A stretch of 64,000 bases of DNA, taken from NCBI GenBank assembly GCA_047974855.1, contig JBKECT010000033.1:744-64743 (forward strand), in the 5' to 3' direction. Source of the stretch: Anaerorhabdus sp. Lineage in GTDB: Bacteria; Bacillota_I; Bacilli_A; Erysipelotrichales; Erysipelotrichaceae. A program made the position numbers and the translations under genes. Shown one piece after another: positions 6,147 through 30,818 of the stretch (position 1 is the first letter of the stretch; each line of letters opens with the position of its first letter). Below the pieces are notes generated by a model. The model saw nothing but the letters and a program-made list of their open reading frames with translations, was not told where the DNA came from and ran no database searches.

Positions 6147-6179
6147 TCAAAAAATTGCTCGGGGCAACTTGCCCCGAGC
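6147..6179 (-). terminator. Rho-independent terminator built on a copy of the GGGGCAA-N-TTGCCCC palindrome
   Basis: Minus strand reads GCTCGGGGC-AAGTT-GCCCCGAGC followed by AATTTTTT, downstream of CDS 6204..6410. Confidence 0.6.
6161..6175. repeat. GGGGCAACTTGCCCC palindrome (outlying copy)
   Basis: Perfect 7-1-7 palindrome. The only copy followed by a T-run. Confidence 0.9.
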
Positions 6180-9802: not shown

Positions 9803-9846
9803 CTTTAGTTACTCACCAACTTCCACTTTATTTAATCGTTCACGTT

Positions 9847-10536: not shown

Positions 10537-10561
10537 AAACTCCCTCCTCTCACAAACAATA

Positions 10562-10590
10562 GAAAAAAAGCACGAATATTCGTGCTTTCT
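10562..10590 (-). terminator. Terminator between the antitoxin repeats and the toxin gene
   Basis: Minus strand reads GCACGAA-TA-TTCGTGC followed by TTTTTTT. Confidence 0.7.
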
Positions 10591-10592
10591 TA

Positions 10593-10676
10593 ATTACAAG
10601 TCGCTCTTTACAGTGGCGAAACACTATCGAATTACCAGTCGCTCATTACAGTGGCGAAACACTATCGAATTACAAC
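10593..10676 (-). ncRNA. ToxI/AntiQ-like antitoxin RNA: 2.2 tandem 38-nt repeats
   Basis: Units at 10593-10630 and 10631-10668 differ at 2 positions by my alignment. A partial third unit is at 10669-10676. Directly upstream (minus strand) of the terminator and toxin gene. Confidence 0.8.
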
Positions 10677-10767
10677 TATAGTATACCATAAAAACGTTGT
10701 AAATCAATAGAAAATATTATTTTTTTATATTTTTTTCCTCCCCCTTAAATCTTTTTGAAAGTTCCGT

Positions 10768-12516: not shown

Positions 12517-12601
12517 TATAAATGTTCTTACGAATTTATCCGCAAGAATTAAATCTTTTTATCTGATCTTAAGTGATGTTGGTGCTGCTAATATTTTATC
12601 T

Positions 12602-13267
12602 TTACTCAACTTCATCACCTCTTTCTACTTCTATTTTTGGTTCTCCTAAAAGTTCAAATTCTCCTGTACTCAAGTATACGTCTAACATTGTCTGACTTTC
12701 AAATTCATATTTAATTAGATTAGAGAAGTCAATTTTATTCATCTGATCCACTTCAAAGCCATTTGAAATAAACAACCTCTTTAGTTCAGCAAAACTGTCA
12801 TTCAATTTTTTTATGTTAGAAGATTTAATCATAATAAAGAAACTCAACTCGTAGATATTTCGCTCTACTTCTTGCATTACTTCCAGATCAAGTAAATGCA
12901 TCTCTTTAATCTGTGGGTTTGTTTCGAACTCTAATTCTTTAGAAATGCGTTCGTATACATCTGTTAACTCGATAGGTGTATATACATATGCATGATAAAG
13001 ATCCACATTAATGCAACTTAGCAAAAACTGAAGAGATTGAACCCATGAATTTTGTACACCTGAAGTATCTAAAAATATGTTTGGTGGAATAATTTTTATA
13101 CCCAACACTCTTTCAGTTCTTCCACCTGATTTTAGATCAACATAGTCTATACCAATCTCTTCGATATCTATCCATTGCAACGTTTTTAGAATCGCTTTTT
13201 TCTTTTTCGTTATTTTTTTTAGTTCTTTCTTATTCTTATTTTTTGTAAATTTCTCCAATACCGCCAT
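12602..13267 (-). CDS. VirB4 N-terminal-domain-like protein (separate ORF)
   Basis: 221 aa. The pattern WIDIEEIGIDYVDLKSGGRTERVLGIKIIPPNIFL resembles N-termini of Gram-positive VirB4 homologues. It ends where an overlapping ATG (12615) begins the next frame. Confidence 0.55.
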   Translation of the reverse strand: MAVLEKFTKNKNKKELKKITKKKKAILKTLQWIDIEEIGIDYVDLKSGGRTERVLGIKIIPPNIFLDTSGVQNSWVQSLQFLLSCINVDLYHAYVYTPIELTDVYERISKELEFETNPQIKEMHLLDLEVMQEVERNIYELSFFIMIKSSNIKKLNDSFAELKRLFISNGFEVDQMNKIDFSNLIKYEFESQTMLDVYLSTGEFELLGEPKIEVERGDEVE

Positions 13268-13547
13268 ATCTGTAGTCTTTCTCCTTTCTTTTAAAGCTAA
13301 TCCAAATCAAAATGTATCTATAAACTGCTTGATATTGTTTAATAGGGATCATAATAACAAACGTTGCACAAACTATACCCACTCCTAAAAACAATACTAA
13401 TGTATTGCTCAGACCGATCGCAAATACAGTTATAAATCCTATAAGACTTACCACAACTAATATTCCAAAATCACTCTTCTTATACAAACCTGCAATATAT
13501 TTACCCGATTTATAGTTCTGAGGAACTACTGCTGTTAATTCTTCCAT
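13236..13547 (-). CDS. Small membrane protein, VirB3/PrgI-like by position
   Basis: 103 aa with two TM segments, immediately upstream of the VirB4 ORFs. Confidence 0.45.
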   Translation of the reverse strand: MEELTAVVPQNYKSGKYIAGLYKKSDFGILVVVSLIGFITVFAIGLSNTLVLFLGVGIVCATFVIMIPIKQYQAVYRYILIWISFKRKEKDYRYGGIGEIYKK

Positions 13548-13548
13548 A

Positions 13549-14922
13549 TCATGCTCCTTTCAAATCTTTCATTGTGTTACGCATTGAATTTAATCCACTA
13601 GATGCTTTTCCCACTGCTTTACCCATAGAGCTATTTGCATAACGATTGGCACTTGCAGCATATAGATGTCCGCTAGTAGCTGTAGCAAATCTCGCTACAG
13701 ACCCTCCAACACCACCTGCCATTGAAGAGCCAACACTAAATGCTCCCGCAACACTGCCAGGTTTTGCTAGCGACTGTCCTGCTGAAATTTTACTAGCAGC
13801 ACCTCCTGCAGCACCTGCAATACCTCCTGCACTACCCGCAGCACTTGATAACGTGCTTATAGAGTTTCCTCCAAGAAAACGTCCAATTCCATAAACACCT
13901 CCACTTGCAGCGGATGCAGCCGTCCCACCAACTGACTTTATAGCACTTCCTGCAACCGCTCCACCAGCTAATGCAGCTCCTCCAATACCACGAGTAACAT
14001 TTGAGATCTGAGATAACTGCTGTAATGTATCACCCGTAGAAGAGTCAATTCCCAAAGTTTTTCCAAGAAACTCACCGCTTCCAAGGGTAAACAAGAATCC
14101 GCCAATCAATATCAGTAATCTTGCAAAAACACTTACATCTCTTACTGCAGTAGACCCTGATAAATTAACCACTATAATTAAACATAAGATTTGAACAAAG
14201 TTACACAGATATATTCCAATAAACTGTTTAAACCACGCTCCACTAACATCACCATCTTTGAAAATAAAACTAGAAAGCGGTATAGGGGCAAATATACCCA
14301 ACACCACTAATCCGAACAACCTTTTAGCTATACCAAGTGCTATAGAGATCATCAATACTGAAGCAGCACCACCTATGATTATTATGACAAATAAATCCAT
14401 CAAATCAGGAAAAAATTTATAGGTTTCATTTAAAAAATCCCCTTCTTTTTCCTTTATGTCAATATCATCTAATGTATAGGTTATATTTTCACCACGGTCA
14501 CCTTCTATATATGTTGAAATAATTGTAGTTGACGGAACTTCACCACTACTAACTCCACCGAAAAGACCCACATTTGATACAAACTGATATCCTGTAGTGT
14601 TTACTGCACCAATTAGAAGCGGAAATGCAGCGGTAATTGCAATAACAACGCCAGTCCTAACAAATATACTTCCAATATGAAATTTTTCCATTGCCTCTTC
14701 ATCAAAATAAGCTTTTATTGCTCTTGCTGATACCCGATAAATAATTAAAAATCCCAGGAAAAGAGAAATCGCACCCCACACATCCCAGACATAACTTTCG
14801 CCAAAAAAATTAACGCTAATAATTTCCTCAATAAGTGAATAACACATATCCATAAGCCACAATAAAGCGGATCCTAGACCCCAGAAAAGTCCACGGATAA
14901 TATTATTAACCCACTCCCACAT
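13549..14922 (-). CDS. Polytopic membrane protein, VirB6/TrbL-like, with a Gly/Ala/Ser-rich C-terminal tail
   Basis: 457 aa with at least 6 predicted TM segments. Position is within the T4SS block. Confidence 0.45.
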   Translation of the reverse strand: MWEWVNNIIRGLFWGLGSALLWLMDMCYSLIEEIISVNFFGESYVWDVWGAISLFLGFLIIYRVSARAIKAYFDEEAMEKFHIGSIFVRTGVVIAITAAFPLLIGAVNTTGYQFVSNVGLFGGVSSGEVPSTTIISTYIEGDRGENITYTLDDIDIKEKEGDFLNETYKFFPDLMDLFVIIIIGGAASVLMISIALGIAKRLFGLVVLGIFAPIPLSSFIFKDGDVSGAWFKQFIGIYLCNFVQILCLIIVVNLSGSTAVRDVSVFARLLILIGGFLFTLGSGEFLGKTLGIDSSTGDTLQQLSQISNVTRGIGGAALAGGAVAGSAIKSVGGTAASAASGGVYGIGRFLGGNSISTLSSAAGSAGGIAGAAGGAASKISAGQSLAKPGSVAGAFSVGSSMAGGVGGSVARFATATSGHLYAASANRYANSSMGKAVGKASSGLNSMRNTMKDLKGA

Positions 14923-14941
14923 CTTTAATCACTCTCCTTCT

Positions 14942-15208
14942 CTATAAACCAAATGCTTTAATGATTTGCGGAGCAAGTACAATGATCAAACCAACAATCA
15001 ATATCTTACCCACTCTTTTAATCCATTCTTTCCAACTTCTTTCATCTTCTTCTGTAGTAGCGATGTACTTATAACTTTGCCAAGCAATTACTACCGCAAG
15101 CACAATCGCTAGACTCATGGTCATTAAATTGTACATACTTTCTAAATACGGTGACAGCAAATTAAAGATTGCTGTCTCATCAATTCCACCTTCTCTTAAT
15201 ATTCTCAT
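14942..15208 (-). CDS. Small two-TM membrane protein
   Basis: 88 aa. Preceded by the conserved 47-nt leader. Confidence 0.55.
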   Translation of the reverse strand: MRILREGGIDETAIFNLLSPYLESMYNLMTMSLAIVLAVVIAWQSYKYIATTEEDERSWKEWIKRVGKILIVGLIIVLAPQIIKAFGL

Positions 15209-15256
15209 TTTTTCTCCTCCTGCAGACTTGCTGCTTCCTTTGGGGCAACTTGCCCC
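15209..15256 (-). promoter_or_regulatory. Conserved leader, class A, copy 1
   Basis: Minus strand reads GGGGCAAGTTGCCCCAAAGGAAGCAGCAAGTCTGCAGGAGGAGAAAA, then ATG. Confidence 0.8.
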
Positions 15257-15259
15257 AGA

Positions 15260-15631
15260 CTAAAATTCAATTGTTACACTTTTACTTTTTTTATGATCTA
15301 AATCTATTCCAAATCTTTCATTGACCATCCCTGCACATTCTTCTGTAGCAGTCAGTTTCTTGATAAACATTAACTCTTCAGCGATCGCCATATTTTCTTC
15401 ATCAAGATGAGCTAGCAATCCCCATTCAACTTCATCATATGTATCTAATGATGCTACAGTAATTAAGGATCTATATCCAGATGAAGAAATATTACCTCCA
15501 CGTTCAATATCAGATTTTAAACTTAAGTTTTGTTTTAATATTTCAATAGATTGATCATCTAATGAATTTAACATTTCTCTACTATTTTCTATACTTACAA
15601 TATCTTTTATTTCGTATCTTTCATTTTTCAT
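15260..15631 (-). CDS. Hypothetical protein (123 aa)
   Basis: ORF track entry. RBS GAGGAG upstream. Confidence 0.55.
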   Translation of the reverse strand: MKNERYEIKDIVSIENSREMLNSLDDQSIEILKQNLSLKSDIERGGNISSSGYRSLITVASLDTYDEVEWGLLAHLDEENMAIAEELMFIKKLTATEECAGMVNERFGIDLDHKKSKSVTIEF

Positions 15632-15755
15632 TTTTATCTCCTCTTTCTTTTTTTAATAAAGTACATTTTTCGCTTTTACAACATGAATCACAAAACATCA
15701 TAGAACACCCTTTCTCTTCTTCAATATCATAATCCTCAAGCCTATCCTCAATCAT
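15621..15755 (-). CDS. Small Cys-rich acidic peptide (44 aa), below the ORF-track size cutoff
   Basis: My translation: MIEDRLEDYDIEEEKGCSMMFCDSCCKSEKCTLLKKERGDKNEK. Preceded by class A leader copy 2. Its end overlaps the next start. Confidence 0.4.
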   Translation of the reverse strand: MIEDRLEDYDIEEEKGCSMMFCDSCCKSEKCTLLKKERGDKNEK

Positions 15756-15757
15756 AA

Positions 15758-15805
15758 TTTTTCTCCTCCTGCAGACTTGCTGCTTCCTTTGGGGCAACTT
15801 GCCCC
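15758..15805 (-). promoter_or_regulatory. Conserved leader, class A, copy 2
   Basis: Same 44-nt core as copy 1, ending at the ATG at 15755. Confidence 0.8.
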
Positions 15806-15926
15806 AATAAAAAAAAAGCTACGGTTCTATTCCGTAACTTAACGCTATAATACAAAAAAGAGGAAACCCTCTTTTTTAAGTCTTTATTTAATAACGTGAC
15901 CTACGTTGTGTCAATAGCATTTATCT

Positions 15927-18326
15927 TCATTCACCCCTCATAACAGGGATTTTAATAATCTGGTTAATACGATAATTATTGAATATTTCAATCCCATAAT
16001 CTGCTTCTGGTATGACAATACTACAACCATCGCCTTCGATAAAATACCCCCCTGGTGCTCTTGTTTCGCAAATACGATACTCGTGACCATATATAAGATC
16101 AGGACTATAGATAGTCCCTTGAGACACATATGTTTCGTAACTCTCAAATGTTGGATCTAAAACCAACTCTCCGCTTTCTTCTTCTGTAGAAACTCTTTCA
16201 ACAATATATTTCCCATCAGGTAAATATTTGATAAGTTCACCGCTCTCTCCTAACGTGTATAGATAGCTTACTTCAACTTCATCCTCTGTATCAAGTGATA
16301 CTCTATATTGTTCTCCAAGTTCTCCTTGAAGTATTAATGCACCAGTGATGTACTCACCAATAAATTCAGTTGTTGGTTCTTCCCAACTCTCTAATTCATC
16401 TTCAGTAAGTTCACCCCTCATCCGCTCAACTTCATAGTCTTTATAAATTTTTTCAATGGTAAAGGCCGCCCCTGAAAGTAAGATCGTTTGCGATTCATTT
16501 TGCTTGTACAACTTCAAAGCTAATCGTCTTCTTTTGTTTGAAAGAGTATCTGTAGAAAAACTAACCCCCTCACCTAGATCCATCGATACCACCTTACAAG
16601 CCTCTTCAGGAAGATCATAACCATCTGGTGCATTTACCTCACAGACTTCATACGTTCTGCCGTGTTTTAGTGGCATATTAGCCCATCCTACGAGCTCTTC
16701 TTCACTTAATAAGGTGAAAGTTCCAATTGGACTTTTTAGGCTGCTAGCGTCGTCTAAAACACGGTAAAAATAGCTTTGGCTTTCTCCTTCTGGGGCAACT
16801 TGCCCCAAAGCAGAAAGATCTAGCTCATTGAGAATTACTAATCCATTTTCATCAGTTTCTATTTCCATCACTTCTTCAAAATTCTCGTTTATCGAGATTT
16901 CTATTTTCCCTTGATAAGCCTGGCTATTATCAACTAAATCATACACTCTTATATATTGATTTCCTGTTATAACATCGAACTCATAGATATCTCCATCGAT
17001 ATCCATCAACGGAATAGTTTCTTCTTCGTCTTCCCAAAGCAAATTTCCATCTTCATCAACTGCTTGAACTTCTTCAGCTTCTGTTATATCAGTGACGCTA
17101 AATACAGCACCATCTAATAAGATTTCATTCCATTCTTCATCTATCTTAAAGTACTGAAGATCTACTTGCTGCAGATTATTCATAATAGAAATTTCTGTTG
17201 TTTCATTTAGTGCTATCTCAACTTCATAGATCCCTGGATTAATTACGTAGCCGTTCACCGTTTCAACTTCTCTTACATAGTAAGTCCCTGCAGGTAAAGT
17301 ATCCTCAATTAATATCTCTCCATCTTCATCAGTACTATATGTTCCAATAACATCATTAAATTCTTCATCGAATGCTACTTCAAATTGATGCCCTGATCCT
17401 GCCGCTAATCCATACTCATCTACTTTAATAATCTCTAGATTTCCTGTAGACATTTTAATATTTAAAGCATAAGAACTCCGTGGGTCTGAATAACCAATTG
17501 AAGCTACCGTTTGTGCTCCAGGAAGTGTCCAGACCACCCCAATCCAACTTGGGTCATTTGTACCAGGAGAAGAAATATCAATTTTTCCATTCTTATCAAA
17601 ATTCAAATCTTCAATGATCACAGTCAAATCATTTCCATTTTTTGAACAACTAACACCATTTGGGCACCCAACGTTATATTTATTCAAAACACCATTCGTA
17701 TCGGTAATCGTTTTCCCAACTTGAAATTCCAATTCTAAAGTTTGGTTGTGAAAACTTGGTGGTGTACCAAAACTATTGATATTTGCCTCTATTTGATTAA
17801 TCTGACTATCCACATTTACATTTGGAGTAATCCAATATCCTAATTCTCTCCAAATTAAGATTTGAGAAGCAATATAGTAATCGTCACTTCCATATTGTTG
17901 ATATCCAAAACGAACCACTTTCCATATTCGCCACTGTGTTTCCCAACCTAAATAATTCCAATCATTTGATTGATTATATTCCATACCAAGCCCAGCTGCT
18001 ACAGTAGGGTCTAAACAAAAAACAACTTGACCATCTATAGACATCATTGACAACCAATGTACTCCATTGTCATATTCAGCAAGTTTCTTCACTCTTACAA
18101 GTTGCGATCTAGTCTTATCACTTACTTCACCATTATAATAAGCTTGAAATTCTTCAACACTCATTAACTCTTGTGGTTCACTCCAGTAATCAAAATAATC
18201 TTCATTCTCTTCAATTAATTGACTCCCTTCTTCATTTTCTATTTCTTCAGCAATTACTGTTGAAATCATTGATAAAACCATACAAAAAGCCAGTAGAATT
18301 CTACTAGCACTTATTTTTTTATTCAT
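15927..18326 (-). CDS. Secreted surface adhesin with a thioester-domain-like N-terminal region and repeated SpaA/Cna-B-like domains
   Basis: Signal peptide present. VVFCLDP plus ASQILIWRE resembles the thioester Cys and TQxxIW motifs. Repeats of the type V(N/A)(G/P)(Y/D)GY... are present. No LPXTG-type sorting signal at the C-terminus. Confidence 0.65.
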   Translation of the reverse strand: MNKKISASRILLAFCMVLSMISTVIAEEIENEEGSQLIEENEDYFDYWSEPQELMSVEEFQAYYNGEVSDKTRSQLVRVKKLAEYDNGVHWLSMMSIDGQVVFCLDPTVAAGLGMEYNQSNDWNYLGWETQWRIWKVVRFGYQQYGSDDYYIASQILIWRELGYWITPNVNVDSQINQIEANINSFGTPPSFHNQTLELEFQVGKTITDTNGVLNKYNVGCPNGVSCSKNGNDLTVIIEDLNFDKNGKIDISSPGTNDPSWIGVVWTLPGAQTVASIGYSDPRSSYALNIKMSTGNLEIIKVDEYGLAAGSGHQFEVAFDEEFNDVIGTYSTDEDGEILIEDTLPAGTYYVREVETVNGYVINPGIYEVEIALNETTEISIMNNLQQVDLQYFKIDEEWNEILLDGAVFSVTDITEAEEVQAVDEDGNLLWEDEEETIPLMDIDGDIYEFDVITGNQYIRVYDLVDNSQAYQGKIEISINENFEEVMEIETDENGLVILNELDLSALGQVAPEGESQSYFYRVLDDASSLKSPIGTFTLLSEEELVGWANMPLKHGRTYEVCEVNAPDGYDLPEEACKVVSMDLGEGVSFSTDTLSNKRRRLALKLYKQNESQTILLSGAAFTIEKIYKDYEVERMRGELTEDELESWEEPTTEFIGEYITGALILQGELGEQYRVSLDTEDEVEVSYLYTLGESGELIKYLPDGKYIVERVSTEEESGELVLDPTFESYETYVSQGTIYSPDLIYGHEYRICETRAPGGYFIEGDGCSIVIPEADYGIEIFNNYRINQIIKIPVMRGE

Positions 18327-18341
18327 TTAATTTTCCTCTTT

Positions 18342-19211
18342 TCATTCATAGTGTAATATTAAATCATGACCTCCTGGTAGTCCCATATTATTGCTGATTC
18401 CAGAACAACTATATCCAACAGCGTGATTTGAATTTAATAATTCATTACCTTTATTTGTGCAAATATCTCCACTTCCTTCTCCTAAAAAACGCTCATACAC
18501 TTCATTACCTTTAGGTCTTATAATAGCATCACATGGTAAGTTCTTGTCATAAACAGCGTTCGGACAAGCATAAGCAGTTTCACTTCCTGAAGATCCACCT
18601 TCTGGGGCAACTTGCCACGAAGAGCCTGAGTTATTAGACCCTGTGCTTCCACTTCCTGAATTTCCAACATTTGGATTGGCGACCGTTACAAACGTAAAGT
18701 CATAAAACGCCTCATATCCATTCTCATCCACTACATAATACTGAAGTGGATATCTTCCAACTTTCTTACTATTCCAATCACCTAAAACTTCTACTTCTAA
18801 TTCATTTCCTAAATAATCAGTTGCGGTAATTTTTTCAAAGCTATAACTCGTTCCTGCAATTACTGTAAACTCTTGCGCAGCACCATTTATTGTAGGATTC
18901 ATATTAACTACATTAACTTTTACTAATCTTTCAATCTTGTCATCTTCATAAGTAACAGTCCATATCGCATCGATAGTTCCTTCTACACTTGTATCAATAT
19001 CTGGATAATGCAACTCTCCATTAAACGATCCTATAATACTGTGCGGATCGAAATCTTGTCCTAGTGCTATCGTTATCTCCTCAGATACCAATTCGAGCTC
19101 TAAATTAAATTCTACAACAACTGGTGTAGGTGTTTGTTCAGTCTCAGTTGTACCTGATGAGCAACCTACAAGTACTAACACCATAAAACTTACTGTAAAT
19201 TTTTTCAACAT
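18342..19211 (-). CDS. Lipoprotein with Ig-like domains, a Ser/Gly linker and a Cys-rich C-terminal domain
   Basis: Lipobox LVGCSS. Paralogous to CDS 21892..22791. Confidence 0.7.
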   Translation of the reverse strand: MLKKFTVSFMVLVLVGCSSGTTETEQTPTPVVVEFNLELELVSEEITIALGQDFDPHSIIGSFNGELHYPDIDTSVEGTIDAIWTVTYEDDKIERLVKVNVVNMNPTINGAAQEFTVIAGTSYSFEKITATDYLGNELEVEVLGDWNSKKVGRYPLQYYVVDENGYEAFYDFTFVTVANPNVGNSGSGSTGSNNSGSSWQVAPEGGSSGSETAYACPNAVYDKNLPCDAIIRPKGNEVYERFLGEGSGDICTNKGNELLNSNHAVGYSCSGISNNMGLPGGHDLILHYE

Positions 19212-19253
19212 AATTTTCTCCTTTCCACCCTTGGGGCAAATTGCCCCAACTTC

Positions 19254-19415
19254 TTATTCTGCCTCATCCATTAACTTCTTTAGTTCTTTCTCAATCAATT
19301 TTAAACCATCTTCTGAATCTTCCTCAAGAATTTTTTCAAGTTGAGGTAATAGTAGAAAATCTTCATCCATTCCATAAACTTCTAGCAATTCTTTTGCCTT
19401 ATCTCTTAAACTCAT
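19254..19415 (-). CDS. Small acidic protein (53 aa), below the ORF-track size cutoff
   Basis: My translation: MSLRDKAKELLEVYGMDEDFLLLPQLEKILEEDSEDGLKLIEKELKKLMDEAE. A class B leader and AAAGGAG RBS lie upstream. Confidence 0.45.
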   Translation of the reverse strand: MSLRDKAKELLEVYGMDEDFLLLPQLEKILEEDSEDGLKLIEKELKKLMDEAE

Positions 19416-19474
19416 AGCTCTATTCTCCTTTCTACCCTTGGGGCAAATTGCCCCAAATTAATATTTTGTATCCT

Positions 19475-19963
19475 CTAATTCATCTGTCCAACTTTATTCT
19501 TTAGTTCTTCATTTTCTTTCTTGAGATCAGAAATTGTCTTGCTTTGATTTTGTATTTCTGATTCCAAGTTATTAATCGCACCCAAAACCTGATCTAATTC
19601 AGATGGTTGCTGTTGTAATTCTTGAACACCATCATTCACATTTTCATCGAACTCGGATAATGAATTTTCTTCATTAGCATACTCATTCACTCCAAATAGA
19701 TTTTCTACCCATCCTTTTATGAAACCAAGAAAAAGAAATGCTCCGCCAGAGACAGCCGTAAACATCGCTAAACCTTTCAAATAGCTAAGAAATGTCTCCC
19801 AATCGAAAGATCCCCAATTCAAAATCCAATCCGCTGCAAATGTCAAAATAAAATAACAAGCTCCTAAAGCAAATATTCCTCCACCAAAGTAAGTAAATAA
19901 ATAGAGAAGCCCTAACCCAATCGATATGATACCATTTAGAACTATATAAAGAAATCTCTTCAT
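19475..19963 (-). CDS. Membrane protein with a C-terminal coiled coil
   Basis: Start moved to MKRFLYIV with an AAGGAGG RBS. The longer track ORF reads through the palindrome leader. Confidence 0.6.
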   Translation of the reverse strand: MKRFLYIVLNGIISIGLGLLYLFTYFGGGIFALGACYFILTFAADWILNWGSFDWETFLSYLKGLAMFTAVSGGAFLFLGFIKGWVENLFGVNEYANEENSLSEFDENVNDGVQELQQQPSELDQVLGAINNLESEIQNQSKTISDLKKENEELKNKVGQMN

Positions 19964-20055
19964 TCTTCCTCCTTCGCGGGGCAAGTTGCCCCAGCTCTTA
20001 TTAATATTATACATTATACCTTATTTCGGATAAAATATATGTCAAAAATAATTAA

Positions 20056-20334
20056 CTACTTCTCCAATACAAGATTTTTTTCCAAACCGTCCTTCCATGA
20101 AAAATTTAATTTTTCATTTTGTTGCAATCCACTTACTATTCCTCTAACTGCCTTCACACCATCTCCTATCTCATTTTTCTTTAATATGAACTCATAATGA
20201 TCTTGGGTATCAATATTTTTTATATAGATTTCCACTTCTTTCACATTATCTAAAAAATTATCGAATACATGCATAGCACTAATCCGACAATTATCTGGCA
20301 TATTCTTTTCTAATCTTTCTTTAAATTTATTCAT
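20056..20334 (-). CDS. Hypothetical protein (92 aa)
   Basis: ORF track entry. Preceded by class A leader copy 3. Confidence 0.55.
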   Translation of the reverse strand: MNKFKERLEKNMPDNCRISAMHVFDNFLDNVKEVEIYIKNIDTQDHYEFILKKNEIGDGVKAVRGIVSGLQQNEKLNFSWKDGLEKNLVLEK

Positions 20335-20382
20335 TTTTTCTCCTCCTGCAGACTTGCTGCTTCCTTTGGGGCAAATTGCCCC
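20335..20382 (-). promoter_or_regulatory. Conserved leader, class A, copy 3
   Basis: Same core sequence. The central N of the palindrome is T on the minus strand. Confidence 0.8.
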
Positions 20383-20385
20383 AAA

Positions 20386-21090
20386 CTATTTTTTCTTTGC
20401 TATAACGATAAATCTTGAATTTTCTTCTGCTACATCACAAGTAACTAATGTAACTAATTTTGATGTATCATCAACATCAGCAGCACCATATTGAATAAAT
20501 GCTCTATCTAAAAATTCATTGATCATCTGTTCCATTTCTCCTGATCTAAACTCTTGTTGATAATAACCAAGCCATAAATTATTTTCCTGCGTTAAATCGA
20601 CTTCTGCAATTCCTATCATTTGATATTCTACTTCACCATCTTCACTGATGATCCTAAATGTTGAGTCACTATCTTCAACTAACTCAGCAATGAAAGAAAA
20701 CATATTGTCATTCTTCGATGAAGCATGACCTTGAATAATCACATTACTAGATAATAGATTGCTTGTTTCGTCAACAAACGGCGTGCCCATCGAATCATAA
20801 TCACCATAGATATCTGTCCTAAAATATGCTTCATTATTTCCTGGATTCATAATCGGCAACTGAAGATCCTTATAAGCGAATATTGCAACAATATCCTCAT
20901 TGATCCTTTGGTATTCTTCTAGGGTTTCAATAATTTCTTCATTTATCTCTGGGGCAACTTGCCCCGAATTATAAAGTATATTTGCTCCATCTAATCCATC
21001 TGGATGCATACTGTAAGTAACGATAACCGTTACTATAACAGTTAGAAAAATAATAACTATAAATATACCTATCACAATTTTTTTCAACAT
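20386..21090 (-). CDS. srtB: Sortase (class B-like)
   Basis: N-terminal TM segment, VIIQGHAS (His), LVTLVTCD (TLxTC Cys) and RFIVIAKK (Arg). Confidence 0.8.
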   Translation of the reverse strand: MLKKIVIGIFIVIIFLTVIVTVIVTYSMHPDGLDGANILYNSGQVAPEINEEIIETLEEYQRINEDIVAIFAYKDLQLPIMNPGNNEAYFRTDIYGDYDSMGTPFVDETSNLLSSNVIIQGHASSKNDNMFSFIAELVEDSDSTFRIISEDGEVEYQMIGIAEVDLTQENNLWLGYYQQEFRSGEMEQMINEFLDRAFIQYGAADVDDTSKLVTLVTCDVAEENSRFIVIAKKK

Positions 21091-21138
21091 AACTTACTCC
21101 TTTCCACTCTTTGGGGCAAGTTGCCCCAAAGAAAAAGA

Positions 21139-21657
21139 TTATAGTTCTTCACTATAATCTAGCTCAATCATTAAATCATTATAAATCTTCTGAACATCAT
21201 TGAATATAAGCCTGCTATATCCATTAAAAACAAGCTTTTGTACTTCCTTTGCATTTTTTATGATATCTTTTTCATCAATTTTAGATACCCTGACTTCTAT
21301 CTCTACATCCTTCTCCATATAAATACAATCAATATATCTACTTGTAATTGGAAACATATTTTGAATAAGAAAAGCTCTTTTCTGTCCTAGTACTTCACTA
21401 AATCGAATTGTATTACATTTAGGATTTTTATTCCCCTTTTGTTTTTGTCTTAAAATTTTATGCTGAACAATACTCTCATACTTTTCAACTCGTGAAGAAA
21501 TTGGAACACACCAATATATATCTGAATTATTTTTATCTTGAAAAGCATAAAAACAAGGTCTCTTATTTCCATTACCTTTATTTTTCATTAGACTTCCATC
21601 CAAATCATATTTTATAAAGAACTCTTCCCTAATAAAGAAGAAAACGCCTTTATCCAT
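21139..21657 (-). CDS. Second type III TA toxin candidate (ToxN-superfamily, CptN-like)
   Basis: RPCFYAF...IYWCVPISSR echoes the FYAPISS motif of the first toxin. Architecture is repeats, hairpin with T-run, RBS, gene. Confidence 0.6.
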   Translation of the reverse strand: MDKGVFFFIREEFFIKYDLDGSLMKNKGNGNKRPCFYAFQDKNNSDIYWCVPISSRVEKYESIVQHKILRQKQKGNKNPKCNTIRFSEVLGQKRAFLIQNMFPITSRYIDCIYMEKDVEIEVRVSKIDEKDIIKNAKEVQKLVFNGYSRLIFNDVQKIYNDLMIELDYSEEL

Positions 21658-21677
21658 TTGTAATTATCCTCCCTTAT

Positions 21678-21715
21678 AAAAAAGTAGGAGCCCCGTGTTT
21701 ACCAAAGTTCCTACT
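21678..21715 (-). terminator. Weak hairpin plus T-run between the repeats and the toxin gene
   Basis: Minus strand reads AGTAGGA-N19-TCCTACT followed by TTTTT, then the GGGAGG RBS. Confidence 0.35.
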
Positions 21716-21718
21716 AAT

Positions 21719-21825
21719 CATTTGTACCCGATTATTTATTTTAACTCCGCTATCGGGAAGCGGAGATACATTTGTACCCGATTATTTATTTTAGCTCCGC
21801 TATCGGGAAGCGGAGATACATTTGA
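21719..21825 (-). ncRNA. Candidate type III antitoxin RNA: 2.1 tandem 50-nt repeats
   Basis: Units at 21719-21768 and 21769-21818 differ at 1 position. Each carries the hairpin CTCCGC-N9-GCGGAG. A partial third unit follows. Confidence 0.65.
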
Positions 21826-21891
21826 GGGACTATTCCCTTACCAAAAGTATATGTGTATGCCAACGATTTGTCAATAAAATTCATATGCAAA

Positions 21892-22791
21892 TTATTCTAC
21901 AACTTCAACAACACAGCTTGCTGACTGTCCATCGTCTGTATAGTAATTAACCGTATATCTACCTGGAACTGACAAATTCACTGCAGAATAGTCTACACTT
22001 ATCGCAGCACTTGCATTCACACCACTAGAGAGTTTAAAAGAAAGATCTCCTAGCGAACTATTTACTTTAATCGTTATATTTTTTACGCCACTTAGAAATG
22101 GACTGTTATTCTCTGGGACAACTTGCCCCGAGGATCCCGAGCTGTTAGACCCTGTACTCCCACTTCCTGAAGAACCACTCTCTGGGGCAACTTGCCCCGA
22201 AGAGTTTGAGTTATTATTTGTTGCTGGTGTAGTGACAATTACCTCAACAATCTCTTTCTCTTTCTCAACAACTTTGATTGTAGTGCTTTTTTCAAGCTTA
22301 TTTCCTGATGTGTCAAATACTTGAATAAAGATGCTATAATTTCCAACTTCTTCTAAATTTACATCACCTAAGATCTTTATTTCGACTTCAGAAAAATTAT
22401 CTTCAGCAGCTATTTCGTTAACTAAATTAAAATACAAATTTCCAACTTCTACTTTATACTCGCTTTTGATATCAGCATTTGGTGCTGTTGTATCCGTGAT
22501 TTCAACTTCTGTATAGATCTTCTTTCCATTAACACTGTATTCAACTTCAAATACACCTAGAGCACTATATTCAGCATCTGAGCAAATTATTTTTACATCA
22601 TCTAGAAGAATGTTTCTATTTTCGATTTGAGTTTCTTCAATACTAATCCCATTCACCGATTCAATAAAACCACATGCATCAATAAATGTATTAATCTCAA
22701 CAACTTCTTTGAATACAACATCTACTGACGATTTTTGGCATCCTGTCAAAATAAATAAAGATACTATTAAACTCGCTATAAATTTTTTCAT
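21892..22791 (-). CDS. Lipoprotein with Ig-like domains and a Ser/Gly linker
   Basis: Lipobox LTGCQK. The linker carries two palindrome copies. Confidence 0.7.
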   Translation of the reverse strand: MKKFIASLIVSLFILTGCQKSSVDVVFKEVVEINTFIDACGFIESVNGISIEETQIENRNILLDDVKIICSDAEYSALGVFEVEYSVNGKKIYTEVEITDTTAPNADIKSEYKVEVGNLYFNLVNEIAAEDNFSEVEIKILGDVNLEEVGNYSIFIQVFDTSGNKLEKSTTIKVVEKEKEIVEVIVTTPATNNNSNSSGQVAPESGSSGSGSTGSNSSGSSGQVVPENNSPFLSGVKNITIKVNSSLGDLSFKLSSGVNASAAISVDYSAVNLSVPGRYTVNYYTDDGQSASCVVEVVE

Positions 22792-22795
22792 TTAA

Positions 22796-23533
22796 TCACC
22801 CATTTCCACTGTTTGGGGCAAGTTGCCCCAAGCGGTCAATAATATCATCAATATCTTCTTCTATTAATGTGTAATCTGCAATCTCAACATCTTCCGTTGA
22901 GATTAAAAACTTTTTGAATGCCTTTATTTTCTTTGAAAAAGTGTCTGCCGGCGATACTTTTGTTTTTTCTGGGGCAACTTGCCCAGAAGTACTTTTATTC
23001 TCTTCCGCCAGAATATTTTTCGTTGTTCCATCACTAATACCTGTCAAAGCACAAATCCACTCTCGCTGTCTGCCAGGCGGCTTTTCGCCACGTTCTACAA
23101 GTTCTTGATATAACTGACTAGCTTCTTTAACGATTTCAAGTCTTTGCTCTGTTGTGAATTGTCTGTATGAATTACTTCTCATAAGAGAAATTTTATCTAA
23201 AATTATATCTCCTGACAGAGCAATTTTGATCGATGGAACTTCACCATCTAGATGCCTGCCTAGAAAATAAACTTCTTTCCCCAGACTAAATAGTTGCCGT
23301 AAAGCAGCAACTCTTCGGTGACCTGTATGAATTAATACTTGCCCATCTTCTTCAGTAATCAAAATCGGTTGCATCAAACCACCCTCAGCAATGCTCTCCG
23401 CAAGTTCATCTATATCAGTTATTTCATAGATATTTTTTTCGTTGGATTTCAAATCTTCTATACTTATGTATTTAATTTTTGCACTTGTATTTTTAAATGA
23501 CTCATTATTGAGCATATCATTCAATATATTCAT
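22796..23533 (-). CDS. ParB/Srx-domain protein (ParB-like partition or regulatory protein)
   Basis: PILITEEDGQVLIHTGHRRVAAL is the ParB N-terminal GxxR box. Start overlaps the parA stop (TAATG). Confidence 0.7.
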   Translation of the reverse strand: MNILNDMLNNESFKNTSAKIKYISIEDLKSNEKNIYEITDIDELAESIAEGGLMQPILITEEDGQVLIHTGHRRVAALRQLFSLGKEVYFLGRHLDGEVPSIKIALSGDIILDKISLMRSNSYRQFTTEQRLEIVKEASQLYQELVERGEKPPGRQREWICALTGISDGTTKNILAEENKSTSGQVAPEKTKVSPADTFSKKIKAFKKFLISTEDVEIADYTLIEEDIDDIIDRLGQLAPNSGNG

Positions 23534-24333
23534 TATACACTAACCTCCTTTCTACCCCTGGGGCAATTTACCCCAAACATCTCTTCTACTAACAATCGAT
23601 AATCTTCTCCTACATTTGCTTTGATATTATTTATAACTGGTAGTTGTGTATATCCTGCTTCTGTAATTGGTTTAGATTGATTTCTTATTTGAGTATTTAG
23701 TAATTTCCCTGGGGCAATTTGCCCCAAGTCCTCAATAAGAGCTTTATCCAAGTTGTTTCTATTTTTCATCGTCACTAAGATCTGGTAATCAACATCCATA
23801 TCATACTTCTCGTTCATATCTTCAATAAAGCTAATTGTAGTAACAAATCCATCTGTTGCTCCTTTATCTATTTTAATTGGAATAAGTATATTCCCTTGCC
23901 TATTCTTACAAGCGTATATTGCATTTGTTGTCATGATACCTAGTGAAGGATTGCAATCCACAATAATAAGATCATACTTTTCTTTCACTTCCTGGATAAT
24001 CTTTAACAGGCGGTTGTGTTGGGCTTTTCTAACATCAATCAATATCGATGTTTCAATCACAAACAAATCTAATCTACTCGGTAATAAATCAAATCCATGA
24101 GGTGTTTTTATAATTGCCTCTTTTGTCATTGTAGGATCGATTAAACAATCTACCACTGTCATTTCATCTTTAGAATATGAATGATCCATCAACATTGCAG
24201 TAGAATTTGCTTGTCCATCCAAATCCACCAACAATACCCTCTTTCCTTTTTTAGCTGCACCAGCAGCTAGATTTATGCTCGTTGTTGTTTTTCCAACACC
24301 GCCCTTAATATTCAATACGCTAATTACTTTCAT
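23533..24333 (-). CDS. parA: ParA/Soj-family ATPase
   Basis: MKVISVLNIKGGVGKTTT is the deviant Walker A. Start moved from 24432 to 24333, with a GGAGGAG RBS in the leader. Confidence 0.85.
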   Translation of the reverse strand: MKVISVLNIKGGVGKTTTSINLAAGAAKKGKRVLLVDLDGQANSTAMLMDHSYSKDEMTVVDCLIDPTMTKEAIIKTPHGFDLLPSRLDLFVIETSILIDVRKAQHNRLLKIIQEVKEKYDLIIVDCNPSLGIMTTNAIYACKNRQGNILIPIKIDKGATDGFVTTISFIEDMNEKYDMDVDYQILVTMKNRNNLDKALIEDLGQIAPGKLLNTQIRNQSKPITEAGYTQLPVINNIKANVGEDYRLLVEEMFGVNCPRGRKEVSV

Positions 24334-24380
24334 TTTTCTCCTCCTGCAGACTTGCTGCTTCCTTTGGGGCAAATTGCCCC
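24334..24380 (-). promoter_or_regulatory. Conserved leader, class A, copy 4
   Basis: Same 44-nt core immediately upstream of the parA ATG. Confidence 0.8.
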
Positions 24381-24383
24381 AAA

Positions 24384-24444
24384 ACTGCATTATGCAGTAT
24401 TCAAAGCAGAAAAATTCTGCTCTCAATACCACATAATGTGGTAT
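24384..24444. promoter_or_regulatory. Three consecutive short palindromes upstream of the parA leader
   Basis: ACTGCAT-T-ATGCAGT at 24384-24398, AGCAGAA-AAA-TTCTGCT at 24405-24421, and ATACCACA-TAA-TGTGGTAT at 24426-24444. Confidence 0.45.
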
Positions 24445-24737
24445 TATCTCATCAACTGCATGCCTGCCATAGGTTTAACCTCTCCCCTTTTCTTTCGTGT
24501 AGGAAGCTCAACGTATTGAAGTCTCATTATCACAAAGAACATCATCGCAAATACAGTTCGCATCTATACCTTGTTAGCCATGCTTTATCGCAAGCGAGCA
24601 ATCTAACTGGGCTCTTTTCTTTGTGTTTCGTAATTGATAAGTTATTTAATTTTCAAAGATCATAAAATTCTATATAGCTAACATGCTTTCGCATGGAAAG
24701 CCCATAAGGGTATCTTTGGGGCAAGTTGCCCCAGAAT

Positions 24738-25778
24738 TTATAAAACCTGTGCTAACTCCTGTAAATCTTTTGTGAATTTCTGCTTCAATTTCTTCAAGTT
24801 CTCTTCAGCATCATCGCAGCGAGTGCCTTGAATTTTATAAACTGTCTCATCCTCCCCCAAAAAGAAACCAGATTTAAATATATGTCGATATATCTCAAAC
24901 GTTTTCTTCACCAATAAGTACTTTCTACGATCAACAATAAAATCATTTGGATCATTACCACTTTTGATATCACGCCAATCAGCATTCCTTACCGCCTCCT
25001 GCAGCAAAAGATTCAGCTCATTTTGTATGTTCTGAATTAATGAATTATTCCCAATTATTAATCTTCTTTCGAATCGATTATATGCCTTCTTTAAATTCAA
25101 TCTATGAATTACTAATCCATTGACTAGCTTCTCTTTTAGAACGCTTAAACTCTGAGTATAAAAATCTTTAAAAGTATTTATAAACGATTCAAAATCATTG
25201 TCATTATAGACAAACTTCCTAGACTTTCTATTTTTAAAACCTGATGTGTTAATTATTGCATTTCCATTTGCATCACGCTTTAAAGAACCCTTTTCTGCAA
25301 TAAGCTCTGCATCTGGATGATCTGCAGCACAAAAGGATTTTGTTTTTATATTTCGATAAATGTTTTTAATATATTTAACTTCATGTTCATCGATCCATTC
25401 ACGATCACAAAAATATACAACCAGCCATTGTACTTTCTTTTGTTTACGTAGATAACTGATACACTTCAAACCTTTTTCTTCCTGGATAACATATCTACAA
25501 AATCTAGCAGATATCTTCATCAATTCATTACGTGAATATCCCCTTTGAGGCAATAAAAGATTTAGTTTAACTCCATAAATTCTTGATTTTTTTTCACTTG
25601 AATACTTCTTTGATTTTTCTAAAGTAATGTATTGATCAATAAATTCCTTTCTATTTGAAATATTAGAATATACAATTGTACTTGGAATTATTGTATTTAG
25701 AAACTCAGGATCTCTTACTTTTTCAAATTCTAAAAAACTTTGATGTTGTTTTCGCTCGTTGTCATAAAGTATGCTCAT
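24738..25778 (-). CDS. Hypothetical protein (346 aa), first gene of the element's gene train
   Basis: ORF track entry with an AGGAGG RBS. No catalytic motif recognised. A replication or regulatory role is only guessed from its position next to parA. Confidence 0.6.
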   Translation of the reverse strand: MSILYDNERKQHQSFLEFEKVRDPEFLNTIIPSTIVYSNISNRKEFIDQYITLEKSKKYSSEKKSRIYGVKLNLLLPQRGYSRNELMKISARFCRYVIQEEKGLKCISYLRKQKKVQWLVVYFCDREWIDEHEVKYIKNIYRNIKTKSFCAADHPDAELIAEKGSLKRDANGNAIINTSGFKNRKSRKFVYNDNDFESFINTFKDFYTQSLSVLKEKLVNGLVIHRLNLKKAYNRFERRLIIGNNSLIQNIQNELNLLLQEAVRNADWRDIKSGNDPNDFIVDRRKYLLVKKTFEIYRHIFKSGFFLGEDETVYKIQGTRCDDAEENLKKLKQKFTKDLQELAQVL

Positions 25779-25998: not shown

Positions 25999-26706
25999 CT
26001 ATTTTTGTGTAGAATCAACCTTTAGATAATCTCTAATTTCACCATTTTCTAATTTTTTAACAATATCAAAATTATAGTTAATCCTATCTAAGTTATGAGT
26101 AATTAAAATTAGTGTTTTTTTATTTTCAATCGCATAATTAATCATAAAGTGGATCACTTCATCAGACAACTCTGGATTCAAAGAAGAAGTAGGTTCATCT
26201 AATAATAAAACTTCCGGTTGATTGACTAGTGCTCGTGCAATTGCTACCCTTTGCTTTTGTCCTCCAGAGAGATTCATTACAAGTTTATTTAATAAACCTT
26301 CTATTTTAACAACTTTTGCAATTTCATGAATTGCGTTTTTTCTATCCTTTCGTTTCATTTTTTTTGAGTACAGCAATGGAATTAATATATTTTCATATAC
26401 TGTTTCTTCTTCAACTAGCATATAATCCTGGAATACATACCCAAACATTTCATTACGTAATTTTGCAATTTCAGATGTACTGAATGACTTATAGTTTGTA
26501 TTTCTAATTTCATACTCCCCCTCAAATTTTCCATCTAAAAGCCCAACAATGTTTAATAAAGTTGTTTTCCCAATTCCTGACTCACCAATAATTGCTACTA
26601 AATTCCCTTCATCTATATCAATATTAGCTTTTGTAAAAACTGTAGTTTCCGATTCTGTTCCCTTACTATAAACTTTATTAATCCCTTTTAAACTCAGTAA
26701 TGTCAT
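25999..26706 (-). CDS. ABC transporter ATP-binding protein (MacB/LolD-like)
   Basis: Walker A GESGIGKTT, signature LSGGQKQR, Walker B LLLDEPT. Confidence 0.9.
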   Translation of the reverse strand: MTLLSLKGINKVYSKGTESETTVFTKANIDIDEGNLVAIIGESGIGKTTLLNIVGLLDGKFEGEYEIRNTNYKSFSTSEIAKLRNEMFGYVFQDYMLVEEETVYENILIPLLYSKKMKRKDRKNAIHEIAKVVKIEGLLNKLVMNLSGGQKQRVAIARALVNQPEVLLLDEPTSSLNPELSDEVIHFMINYAIENKKTLILITHNLDRINYNFDIVKKLENGEIRDYLKVDSTQK

Positions 26707-26707
26707 T

Positions 26708-27736
26708 TTACAAGTCTCCTTTCAAATTCTCTAGTAAATTTTTTCTCTTTAAAATAAACCAAAGTAATATCTCAAACATACAAAACATGACAATTAGAGA
26801 AACTGTTCCGATAATAAATATCAAATTGAAGATAAATTTATTAAGATACATAAAGATCCAAAAATTCATTACTAACCCTATGCCTAAGAATATACTGCTT
26901 CTGATAAATATATCTTTTATTGTAGCTCCACATATCAAATGAATCATATACTCTTTATAAAGTTTTCTTATTTGGCTAGTATATATAATATACGTAGCTA
27001 AAATAGCAACAACAATACAAAGAGCGACAATAACATAAATATATTTCAGAATAAACCCTAATTGATCATTCCATTTGTTTTCTTTCACAAAATATGGAGT
27101 TCCATCAAAAATATTAATGAATTCATTTTTAATACCTCCATCAATTTCTATTTTAGAAAATTCTGCATTTTCAATCAGTTCTATAACTTCAGTATAATAA
27201 TCAACTTCAATCCATTTCTCAAAATTATTGGTTTGAAGAATAATTATAGTTTTAATTTCTTCAAATTCAATAATTTCTTGAATATCTATATCTTCTCTAT
27301 TTTTAAATTCATATTCTAATTCCTCTGGGAATGTTTTCTCACCCTGAATCCTTAATTTTGTTTTTTCAGTTGTATATATTGTCGTTTTTTCGTTCTCTAA
27401 ATAATTTTTATATTTACTACCAACAAGAACTAGCACCCTCTCATCTAAAGCCCTATACAAACTATGAGGATTAAAATATGATCCCCCTGTCCCTTGAAAC
27501 AAATCATATAATTCAGTAACAATCTCTTCATTCATCCCCATATTCATCTCAGTCAATTCAGCACTAAACATCGGGTAATGTGTATTTTTATTTTTTGAAT
27601 TCAATAATTCACTAACTATAGATTGTGTTGATGAAATCGAAAGAATGAGTAGCGAAAAAGTCATTAAAAGAAAAGAAAGAAAAACTTTTTTATTATTCCA
27701 AATATCTTTAATTCCTAAATTTAAATTTTCAATCAT
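26708..27736 (-). CDS. FtsX-like/DUF1430-like ABC permease subunit
   Basis: N-terminal TM segment, a large extracytoplasmic domain and a C-terminal TM bundle. Start overlaps the upstream gene by 4 nt. Confidence 0.6.
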   Translation of the reverse strand: MIENLNLGIKDIWNNKKVFLSFLLMTFSLLILSISSTQSIVSELLNSKNKNTHYPMFSAELTEMNMGMNEEIVTELYDLFQGTGGSYFNPHSLYRALDERVLVLVGSKYKNYLENEKTTIYTTEKTKLRIQGEKTFPEELEYEFKNREDIDIQEIIEFEEIKTIIILQTNNFEKWIEVDYYTEVIELIENAEFSKIEIDGGIKNEFINIFDGTPYFVKENKWNDQLGFILKYIYVIVALCIVVAILATYIIYTSQIRKLYKEYMIHLICGATIKDIFIRSSIFLGIGLVMNFWIFMYLNKFIFNLIFIIGTVSLIVMFCMFEILLWFILKRKNLLENLKGDL

Positions 27737-30804: not shown

Positions 30805-30818
30805 GTTTTATATAGATT
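30805..30818. repeat. Target-site duplication, right copy
   Basis: GTTTTATATAGATT, identical to 29338-29351. Confidence 0.75.

Follow-up and report, generated by a model that had tools for sequence, protein, structure and literature searches.

Is a DNA palindrome that recurs inside the genes of six proteins retained for the peptide it encodes or for the DNA itself, and if the latter, which molecule reads it? The question is raised by a stretch of 64,000 nucleotides of contig JBKECT010000033.1 from Anaerorhabdus sp. (GenBank assembly GCA_047974855.1), referred to here in its full length as the window, which, as judged by its gene complement, contains an integrated conjugative element of an Erysipelotrichaceae bacterium, a low-GC Firmicute. 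An earlier interpretation based on the letters alone, the sequence-only reading, had described the palindrome as embedded in six unrelated proteins and read as G-Q-(V/I/L)-(A/V)-P, and had proposed that the nucleic acid is conserved and merely accommodated by the proteins. The site proved to be genuine and restricted to the element; its nucleotides are what is conserved, it shows no strand preference, and it tracks the recognition helix of a ParB-family protein encoded alongside it (22796–23533). With a probability of roughly 0.6, the palindrome is considered to represent the double-stranded DNA operator or centromere (parS-type) site of this protein.

Copy number and distribution of the palindrome

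The palindrome conforms to the 15-nt pattern GGGGCAANTTGCCCC, most often present as TTGGGGCAANTTGCCCCAA, and the full site forms a 19-base palindrome, TTGGGGCAA-N-TTGCCCCAA. Allowing for two or fewer mismatches, nineteen copies could be distinguished in the 64-kb window, fifteen of them exact and four with a single mismatch, compared to an expectation for GGGGCAANTTGCCCC of 0.05 matches on the basis of dinucleotide-preserving shuffles. The copies extend over 18.5 kb, from 6161 to 24732, where the minus strand is the coding strand of every gene, and no GGGGCAANTTGCCCC match occurs in the other ~45 kb of the window, chromosomal flanks included. Seventeen of the nineteen are packed into 9.5 kb from parAB on, with six located within or flanking the parAB region. 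The span of 16792 to 23725 given in the sequence-only reading does contain copies, but others are situated outside of it (6161, 15242, 15791, 24366 and 24718). Ten copies are found in leaders or between genes, typically with a start codon 14 to 33 nt further on, in agreement with the earlier observation that the identical sequence also occurs in untranslated leaders, and nine lie inside coding sequence.

The nine copies that had previously been named were all found in the places and with the peptides ascribed to them. Eight are of the GQxAP type, and occur in the genes, all on the minus strand, for a TED/SpaA adhesin (15927–18326; copy 16792..16806, exact, ALGQVAPEGE), lipoprotein 1 (18342–19211; 18604..18618 in a Ser/Gly linker, one mismatch, SSWQVAPEGG), a sortase (20386–21090; 20951..20965, past the membrane anchor, exact, NSGQVAPEIN), lipoprotein 2 (21892–22791; 22115..22129, one mismatch, SSGQVVPENN, and 22184..22198, exact, SSGQVAPESG), the ParB-like protein (22815..22829 in the last codons, exact, RLGQLAPNSG, and 22971..22985, one mismatch, TSGQVAPEKT) and ParA (23711..23725, exact, DLGQIAPGKL). 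The copy at 22971 coincides with residues 185–194 of the ParB-like protein, a linker predicted to be disordered (pLDDT below 50) between the helix-turn-helix (HTH) and the C-terminal helices. The ninth copy (23560..23574, one mismatch) is located in the last 14 codons of parA, where it is read in another frame (FGVNCP), and doubles as the leader of the next gene, 26 nt before the parB start codon. These particulars were confirmed, but it is not the sole copy with such a double role, as the one at 22815 is likewise found in terminal codons, those of parB, and 23 nt before the lipoprotein 2 start codon. Six host proteins can indeed be counted, but their independence had been overstated; the Ser/Gly linkers of lipoproteins 1 and 2 are homologous, site included (flanks of 18604 and 22115), and the two lipoproteins thus represent non-independent acquisitions of the site.

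Conservation of DNA rather than peptide

All eight GQxAP-type copies of the window are read in the frame xxG GGG CAA NTT GCC CCx, yielding G-Q-(V/I/L)-(A/V)-P. Among the twenty-three genes of the element, the codons GGG-CAA-NTT-GCC/GTC are used in 7/7 GQ(V/I/L)(A/V)P peptides, against the codon bias of the element, where GCC makes up 16/358 Ala codons (4.5 %) and GGG 17 % of the Gly codons. Calculated from this codon usage, the probability of GGG CAA GTT GCC given GQVA is 0.002 per site. The closest relative is an element in an Erysipelotrichaceae metagenome-assembled genome (MAG; L001/L004; ParB 62 % identical), which adjoins housekeeping genes in a 221-kb contig and contains ten palindrome copies in 12 kb (L001). 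Comparison of eight orthologous gene pairs between the window and L001 showed that identical residues are encoded by the same codon in 22/23 cases inside the motif, as opposed to 890/1668 (53 %) outside of it, so that the core is conserved inclusive of third codon positions. Orthologous copies are present in L001 in the adhesin (SLGQIAPED), at both positions in ParA (GQVAP and FGATCP), in the ParB linker, in lipoprotein 2 and 3' of the Rep-like gene (at 8592 in L001), and the differences between shared sites are confined to the central base, with V and I exchanged. In orthologs without the motif, the peptide is absent as well: the sortase, lipoprotein 1 and the ParB C-terminus of L001 contain neither site nor peptide, and in more distantly related elements both are likewise missing from ParA and ParB. 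Furthermore, the ParA site aligns ungapped with NQIIPSK of a 41 %-identical distant homologue lacking the site, and can therefore be considered to have arisen by substitution, not by insertion. Codon choice, synonymous sites and site-less orthologs all agree, and support the view that the conserved unit is the nucleic acid, with the palindrome accommodated by the proteins.

That GQVAPE is instead a functional protein motif, or that the copies were recently spread by a mobile mini-element, can be given hardly any credence. Such a reading can draw on the recurrence of GQVAPE in the Ser/Gly linkers of exported proteins and on the evident duplication of two lipoprotein linkers. However, ten copies are untranslated and one is read in the other frame (GVNCP), and the hosts include cytoplasmic ParA and ParB in addition to the exported adhesin, lipoproteins and sortase, as had been stated in the sequence-only reading. 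A peptide retained with varied codons was looked for, and fixed codons were found in all seven peptides; signs of a recent mini-element were likewise sought, and the copies proved to occupy orthologous positions in a relative with 62 % identity amid unrelated, non-conserved flanks, with no ParA indel relative to the site-less homologue. Both readings were rejected on the basis of this codon, synonymous-site, ortholog-position and ParA-alignment evidence.

A further point of the earlier proposal to be qualified is that DNA-level selection on coding sequence is uncommon, given that it is not rare for ParB-type sites. The prophage-like locus L165 (1605–14505) encodes an unrelated 447-aa ParB_N protein and contains six copies of a different palindrome, GTGTCAGnnnCTGACAC. 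Of these, two are located inside that parB gene, which provides an independent example of intragenic ParB-type sites.

The ParB-family protein and its recognition helix

The candidate binder is a 245-aa ParB-family protein (22796–23533, minus strand), directly upstream of which a ParA-type Walker ATPase is encoded (23533–24333, minus strand; 266 aa from MKVISVLNIKGGVGKTT). The latter matches AAA_31 (E = 7e-42) as well as CbiA/ParA, and its gene end abuts the parB start. The N-terminal domain of the ParB-like protein matches Pfam ParB_N (E = 1.1e-5), with partial NCBIfam matches to parB_part and Noc. A GxxR arginine patch (G71, R74) and an ENLxR-like N..R box (N121, R124) are invariant in an alignment of eighteen sequences, and are accompanied by an HTH with the recognition helix TGISDGTTK and, thereafter, a C-terminal helical part. 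When the AlphaFold2 model of the protein (pLDDT 78.5; residues 20–180 above 85) was compared by Foldseek, ParB, Noc and KorB structures were retrieved with E-values of 2e-7 to 1e-5 over 160–235 columns, comprising the N-terminal and DNA-binding domains. ParB and Noc are the best matches at both the sequence and structure level, and the predicted fold supports assignment to the ParB family, with membership in the KorB or BisD subfamilies not being supported. The duplex TTGGGGCAAGTTGCCCCAA is put forward as ligand of this protein, with GGGGCGAAACGCCCC as comparison duplex.

To collect ParB homologues without recourse to the site, protein sequence was used as the query, and the loci recovered were subsequently searched for recurrent palindromes of any kind. 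Three pairs of helix and palindrome could be distinguished. The type 1 helix, TGISDGT(T/V)K, occurs with GGGGCAAnTTGCCCC in the window and its relatives, the type 2 helix, TGI(K/S)EHY(V/I)K, with GGGGCGwwwCGCCCC (L134, L085, L159–L163 and L166), and the type 3 helix, TGIAEHACK, with GTGGGCGwwwCGCCCAC, which is present in five copies in L164. Up to 15 exact site copies are found per type-2 locus, with none expected. The helix-1 loci (n = 27) contain 103 type-1 versus 5 type-2 sites, the helix-2 loci (n = 8) 50 type-2 versus 2 type-1 sites and the helix-3 locus (n = 1) 5 type-3 sites, counts that are biased in that the type-1 metagenome loci were found via the site, the unbiased set consisting of the window, L001/L004 and the type-2 and type-3 loci. 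Within one type, both helix and site are kept among ParBs with as little as 31–41 % identity, and the type-3 ParB, which is 41 % identical to a type-2 ParB, differs from it in both. The variant sites, too, are found ahead of start codons, and also within the gene of a 2220-aa adhesin, where they are mostly read as G-G-E-T-P.

The elements L134 (1–14283) and L157 share a Rep-like protein (74 % identity), XRE proteins (69–92 %), an SSB (87 %) and an adhesin (59 %), but differ in ParA (38 %) and ParB (30 %), and near parAB the type-1 sites have given way to type-2 sites. Remnants are still visible, with a site of the old type at 2116 near the adhesin and a hybrid half-site, GGGGCAAAACGCCCC, at 9974 in L134, and a single type-2 site at 11975 in L157. 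Going by these comparisons, L134 is a natural chimera in which the parAB cassette has been exchanged and the turnover of sites is incomplete. Alignments of the orthologous intergenic DNA of L134 and L157 do not bear on in-place conversion of sites, given how far the flanks have diverged. The window and the clade-B elements have only ParA, ParB, SSB and a 22 %-identical Rep-like protein in common near the sites.

Alternative binders and the possibility of a hairpin

Besides the bias in the type-1 counts, several points weigh against ParB as the cognate protein. The co-variation of helix and site is, as sequence evidence, correlative, and the ParB_N match scores 25.8, just below the Pfam gathering cut-off of 26.3. 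On a Coprobacillus MAG contig (L002; 3.8 kb, 1–3784), ParA is encoded together with a 44 %-identical ParB that has the type-1 helix, and this contig is without any GC-rich palindrome; in all other type-1 loci a site is found about 25–230 bp past the parB stop codon. Two small genes directly 3' of parB in L134 are also unmatched in L157 and travel with the cassette. Finally, both the steady placement 10–35 nt before start codons and the stable RNA hairpins predicted for the sites are superfluous in the ParB model, leaving room for an added or alternative role at the RNA level. The palindrome might accordingly be the double-stranded operator of another protein of the element, such as a small regulator near parB, an XRE-type repressor or the Rep-like protein, with ParB merely co-inherited. 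This is considered quite improbable. The differing small open reading frames (ORFs) of L134 and L157 and the presence of XRE-family genes in many relatives speak for it, but the XRE and Rep-like proteins retain 69–92 % and 74 % identity, respectively, across the switch in site type, for which reason these two were rejected as binders. No counterpart of the two small cassette genes was found in the window, and the window and L001 have an identical type-1 site yet lack detectable clade-B small genes or XRE. Of the conserved HTH proteins, ParB alone is shared by all elements with the site, and its recognition helix is the best-conserved block. A host factor was likewise rejected as binder, considering that the site is absent from the chromosomal flanks in both the window and its relatives.

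Alternatively, the palindrome could act as a hairpin, formed either by the mRNA or by the single strand that is transferred, and be bound by a sequence-specific RNA- or single-stranded DNA-binding factor, with possible roles in stabilisation or processing of transcripts, translational insulation or ArdC-primase priming of the complementary strand in the recipient. This is regarded as unlikely, although it would account for the placement of about half of the unique sites (among the matches listed) 10–35 nt before a start codon, abutting the Shine-Dalgarno sequence, and for predicted RNA hairpins of -12.8 to -22.1 kcal/mol (z-scores -2.5 to -3.75). It is also compatible with the exchange of A/T for G/C that distinguishes type 2 from type 1 at positions 6 and 10, in which pairing is kept, and with the terminator-like copy at 6161. 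However, among the matches listed a compensatory double change is found in only 1 of 218 unique sites and the would-be loop or loop-closing positions A6, A7, T9 and T10 are invariant in 110/110 leader sites, and no covariation was seen in the flanks beyond the 19-mer. With sites oriented by gene direction, the central base is A in 45 and T in 58 of the matches listed, and the centre of type-2 sites is AAA or TTT, roughly equally, which is difficult to explain for an RNA loop and fits one double-stranded sequence used both ways. Processing sites within coding regions would furthermore cut the mRNAs, the Rfam gathering scan of window positions 1–30 kb gave no match, a U-run follows the 6161 copy only, and the site type goes with the parAB cassette. 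The location ahead of ribosome-binding sites could merely reflect the scarcity of free DNA in spacers of ~50 nt. An invariant, strand-symmetric site with two-fold symmetry fits the requirement of a dimeric protein that binds double-stranded DNA, as would be the case for ParB.

Leader copies and the terminator-like copy

The copy at 6161..6175 (exact) is intergenic, 3' of an SSB-like gene (6403–6753, minus strand). Its stem is extended to 11 bp, GCTCGGGGCAA/TTGCCCCGAGC, with a T-run coming next on the coding strand (window 6150–6190), and the copy probably also functions as an intrinsic terminator behind the SSB-like gene. A terminator function was dropped for all other copies, as the U-run occurs nowhere else. 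The remaining untranslated copies are all exact. Five of them precede genes at varying distances, namely those at 19233..19247 (lipoprotein 1 start codon 21 nt downstream), 19440..19454 (a 53-aa ORF beginning 24 nt downstream), 19978..19992 (14 nt before the gene of a membrane/coiled-coil protein with its true start at about 19963), 21113..21127 (sortase start codon 22 nt downstream) and 24366..24380 (parA start codon at 24333, 32 nt downstream). The copy at 24366 is part of a repeated leader cassette, as are those at 15242..15256 (33 nt upstream of the ATG of an 88-aa gene, 14942–15208, minus strand), 15791..15805 (intergenic, past the adhesin stop codon) and 20368..20382 (33 nt before a 92-aa gene, 20056–20334, minus strand). 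The last copy, at 24718..24732, is situated 5 nt past the stop codon of the Rep-like gene (24738–25778, minus strand).

The leader cassettes, TTGGGGCAAnTTGCCCCAAAGGAAGCAGCAAGTCTGCAGGAGGAGAAAAA-ATG, are near-identical, ~50 nt in length and located at 15207–15260, 15756–15809, 20333–20386 and 24331–24384, one before each of four unrelated genes, and include a further small hairpin, GCAG..CTGC. A second leader type (..CCCCAAGGGTGGAAAGGAG) occurs four or five times in the window. These repeats suggest that leader sequences have been copied from gene to gene.

In the window, the sites are located ahead of ribosome-binding sites in what appears to be a long operon, and a scan for promoter-like sequences showed no enrichment (38 versus 52.7 expected). 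In the type-2 locus L163, pairs of sites 37–38 bp apart are found ahead of three genes (9168–9219, 10816–10868 and 20185–20237), with a conserved spacer, ..caa[t/c]a...a..tttacttg, in between; these pairs may constitute a promoter/operator module.

Proposed role of the sites

On the ParB reading, a ParB dimer would recognise the palindrome as double-stranded DNA, and the parA-parB module of the integrative conjugative element (ICE) would thus have in it a site of the parS/operator type. By analogy to the CTP-dependent clamps formed by ParB, KorB and BisD, the protein may load at the sites and coat the part of the transfer region from parAB to the adhesin. This coating could serve the segregation of the excised element, and probably would also provide global control, either silencing or activation, of the long transfer operon. 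As the short (~50-nt) spacers offer little free room, many copies would come to lie directly ahead of ribosome-binding sites, while the other copies would have arisen through point substitutions in those linker or terminal protein segments that tolerate them, in the frame whose peptide (G-Q-V/I/L-A-P) would do the least harm. We thus infer ParB binding, CTP-dependent clamping and a regulatory or partition outcome from the features of the sites and their neighbouring gene.

A more far-reaching scheme can be entertained, though it is tentative and rather doubtful. A large and previously undescribed family of ICEs in gut Firmicutes may employ a minimal ParB/KorB-like CTP clamp, loaded at 10–20 operators before almost every cistron and in frame in long ORFs, such that a transfer operon of ~20 kb is coated and switched as a unit. 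The helix/site classes, of which there would be at least three, and the exchange of parAB followed by site-by-site conversion might then amount to an incompatibility or immunity code between co-resident elements.

Occurrence in related elements

Searches with the exact 19-mer identified at least 120 loci in metagenome contigs, as well as two multi-copy IMG/VR contigs. The loci among the matches listed encode the same kind of conjugation proteins, with 22–40 % identity to those of the window, and as far as sequence comparison goes, the palindrome is the mark of a large family of gut conjugative elements. Within relatives, the sites are confined to the element, where 5–17 copies are distributed over 6–13 kb.

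Among the matches listed, sites in unique contexts comprise 187 perfect ones, 27 with one mismatch and four with two. Deep-intragenic unique sites are read as GQxAP in 35/50 cases, as GAxCP in 11/50 and as WG(K/N)LP in 4/50. The single reading frame noted earlier is thus valid for all eight copies in the window and becomes a preference when related elements are considered; part of the minority-frame sites may be artefacts of ORF calling. Independent GQxAP hosts include the C-terminus of a VirB6-like protein (SPLGQIAPSQ) and a 343-aa protein (GSGQIAPSTS). The alternative frames would give WG(K/N)LPQ or GAxCP, and the preference for GQxAP is most simply explained by a peptide that is tolerated in linkers.

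In the plasmid database, no match was obtained by megablast with 12 kb of the window, and tblastn with ParB gave only matches below 30 % identity on Lactococcus and Clostridium plasmids, with no close annotated relative. Using the ParB alignment, no match was found in a metagenome scan, and a viral scan recovered only the two contigs already found by the 19-mer. The searched literature contained no paper with the 15-mer when queried for it and its halves, and nothing specific was retrieved on intragenic parS in the conjugative elements of Gram-positive bacteria.

Gene content of the conjugative element

The genes of the element include those for a T4 coupling protein, a MobL relaxase, an ArdC-primase, SSB, an M23 peptidase, and VirB4-like and TrbL/VirB6-like proteins. 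Further constituents are the TED/SpaA adhesin, the sortase and the two Ig-like lipoproteins, as well as ParA, the ParB_N protein, the Rep-like protein and two type III toxin-antitoxin loci. The ParB protein is identical to one annotated in an Anaerorhabdus sp. MAG. The first toxin-antitoxin locus (9847–10675) consists of ToxN (9847–10536, minus strand) and a 38-nt tandem repeat in 2.2 copies (10592–10675). The second (21139–21874) comprises a CptIN-family toxin (21139–21657, minus strand; NCBIfam E = 4e-47), a 50-nt repeat in 2.1 copies (21719–21824) and a sigma-70-like promoter with an 11/12 match (21874–21846). An ABC transporter (25999–28761) is cargo of the element. An IS30-family transposase (29497–30597, plus strand) and a large serine recombinase (33157–34452, plus strand) follow, and the region of 29497–34452 is probably the integrase end of the ICE. 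The recombinase is succeeded by chromosomal sugar-metabolism genes, which indicates that the element is integrated.

Comparison with known systems

If ParB binds these sites, the element would represent a Gram-positive counterpart of the recently understood KorB and BisD clamp regulators, carried by elements frequently found in metagenomes of the human gut and the rumen. It would equally present a natural experiment on the evolution of ParB specificity, with three helix/palindrome pairs, a swap with partial turnover and hybrid half-sites. The locus is a clean and quantifiable case of a DNA-binding site constraining protein sequence, by way of rare fixed codons, a preferred frame and placement in linkers, and the 19-mer is a practical marker with which this ICE family can be found and typed.

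KorB of the IncP plasmid RK2 recognises OB, the core of which, TTTAGCGGCTAAA, is a perfect palindrome with an odd, free central base, and, as a sliding clamp dependent on CTP, silences distant genes (PMC11790492). The window shares with this system a ParB-family gene beside that of a ParA-type ATPase on a conjugative element, an odd-centred palindrome and copies that are dispersed over the element instead of forming one clustered centromere, and in the fold search the window protein fell among the structures of KorB, ParB and Noc. However, the protein is only about 14–16 % identical to KorB, no KorA- or TrbA-like partner was identified in the window element, and the host is a Gram-positive ICE and not an IncP plasmid, with denser sites (17 in 9.5 kb) that stand before ribosome-binding sites and inside coding sequence, apparently not mainly at promoters. 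By analogy, KorB/OB appears to be the closest functional counterpart. BisD of ICEclc in Pseudomonas is a ParB-like CTP-binding protein that binds parS-like bisS sites on the ICE, spreads over about 50 kb and controls the promoters of transfer competence; it contains an additional activator domain, acts with a partner, BisC, and loads at just two bisS sites (PMC12409273). While both are ParB-like proteins of integrative conjugative elements, the window protein is minimal (245 aa, without an extra domain) with 19 sites, and the lineages are unrelated.

An N-terminal CTPase domain and HTH are also shared with Spo0J/parS and Noc/NBS of the Firmicutes. Chromosomal parS and Noc sites are palindromes of 14–16 bp and often intragenic, the first parS of B. 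subtilis having been located inside spo0J, and the parS sequence is TGTTNCACGTGAAACA. In the window, coding sequence is subject to a DNA-level constraint of the same kind, but the palindrome differs in sequence, is carried by and confined to the element, and is packed gene by gene with a pronounced reading-frame preference. As with REP and MITE sequences, the copies are short, GC-rich palindromes that are repeated many times, mostly between genes. They differ from these in their length of 15–19 bp, the lack of element ends, their in-frame location within genes and the orthologous positions that they occupy among diverged relatives, with a sequence that co-varies with ParB, and no association of the copies with a RAYT or transposase was seen. 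Intragenic binding-site palindromes as such are known for ParB-type sites, and the present case constitutes a variant of these. New are the element family, the density of sites, their placement cistron by cistron, the reading-frame solution and the three matched specificity classes.

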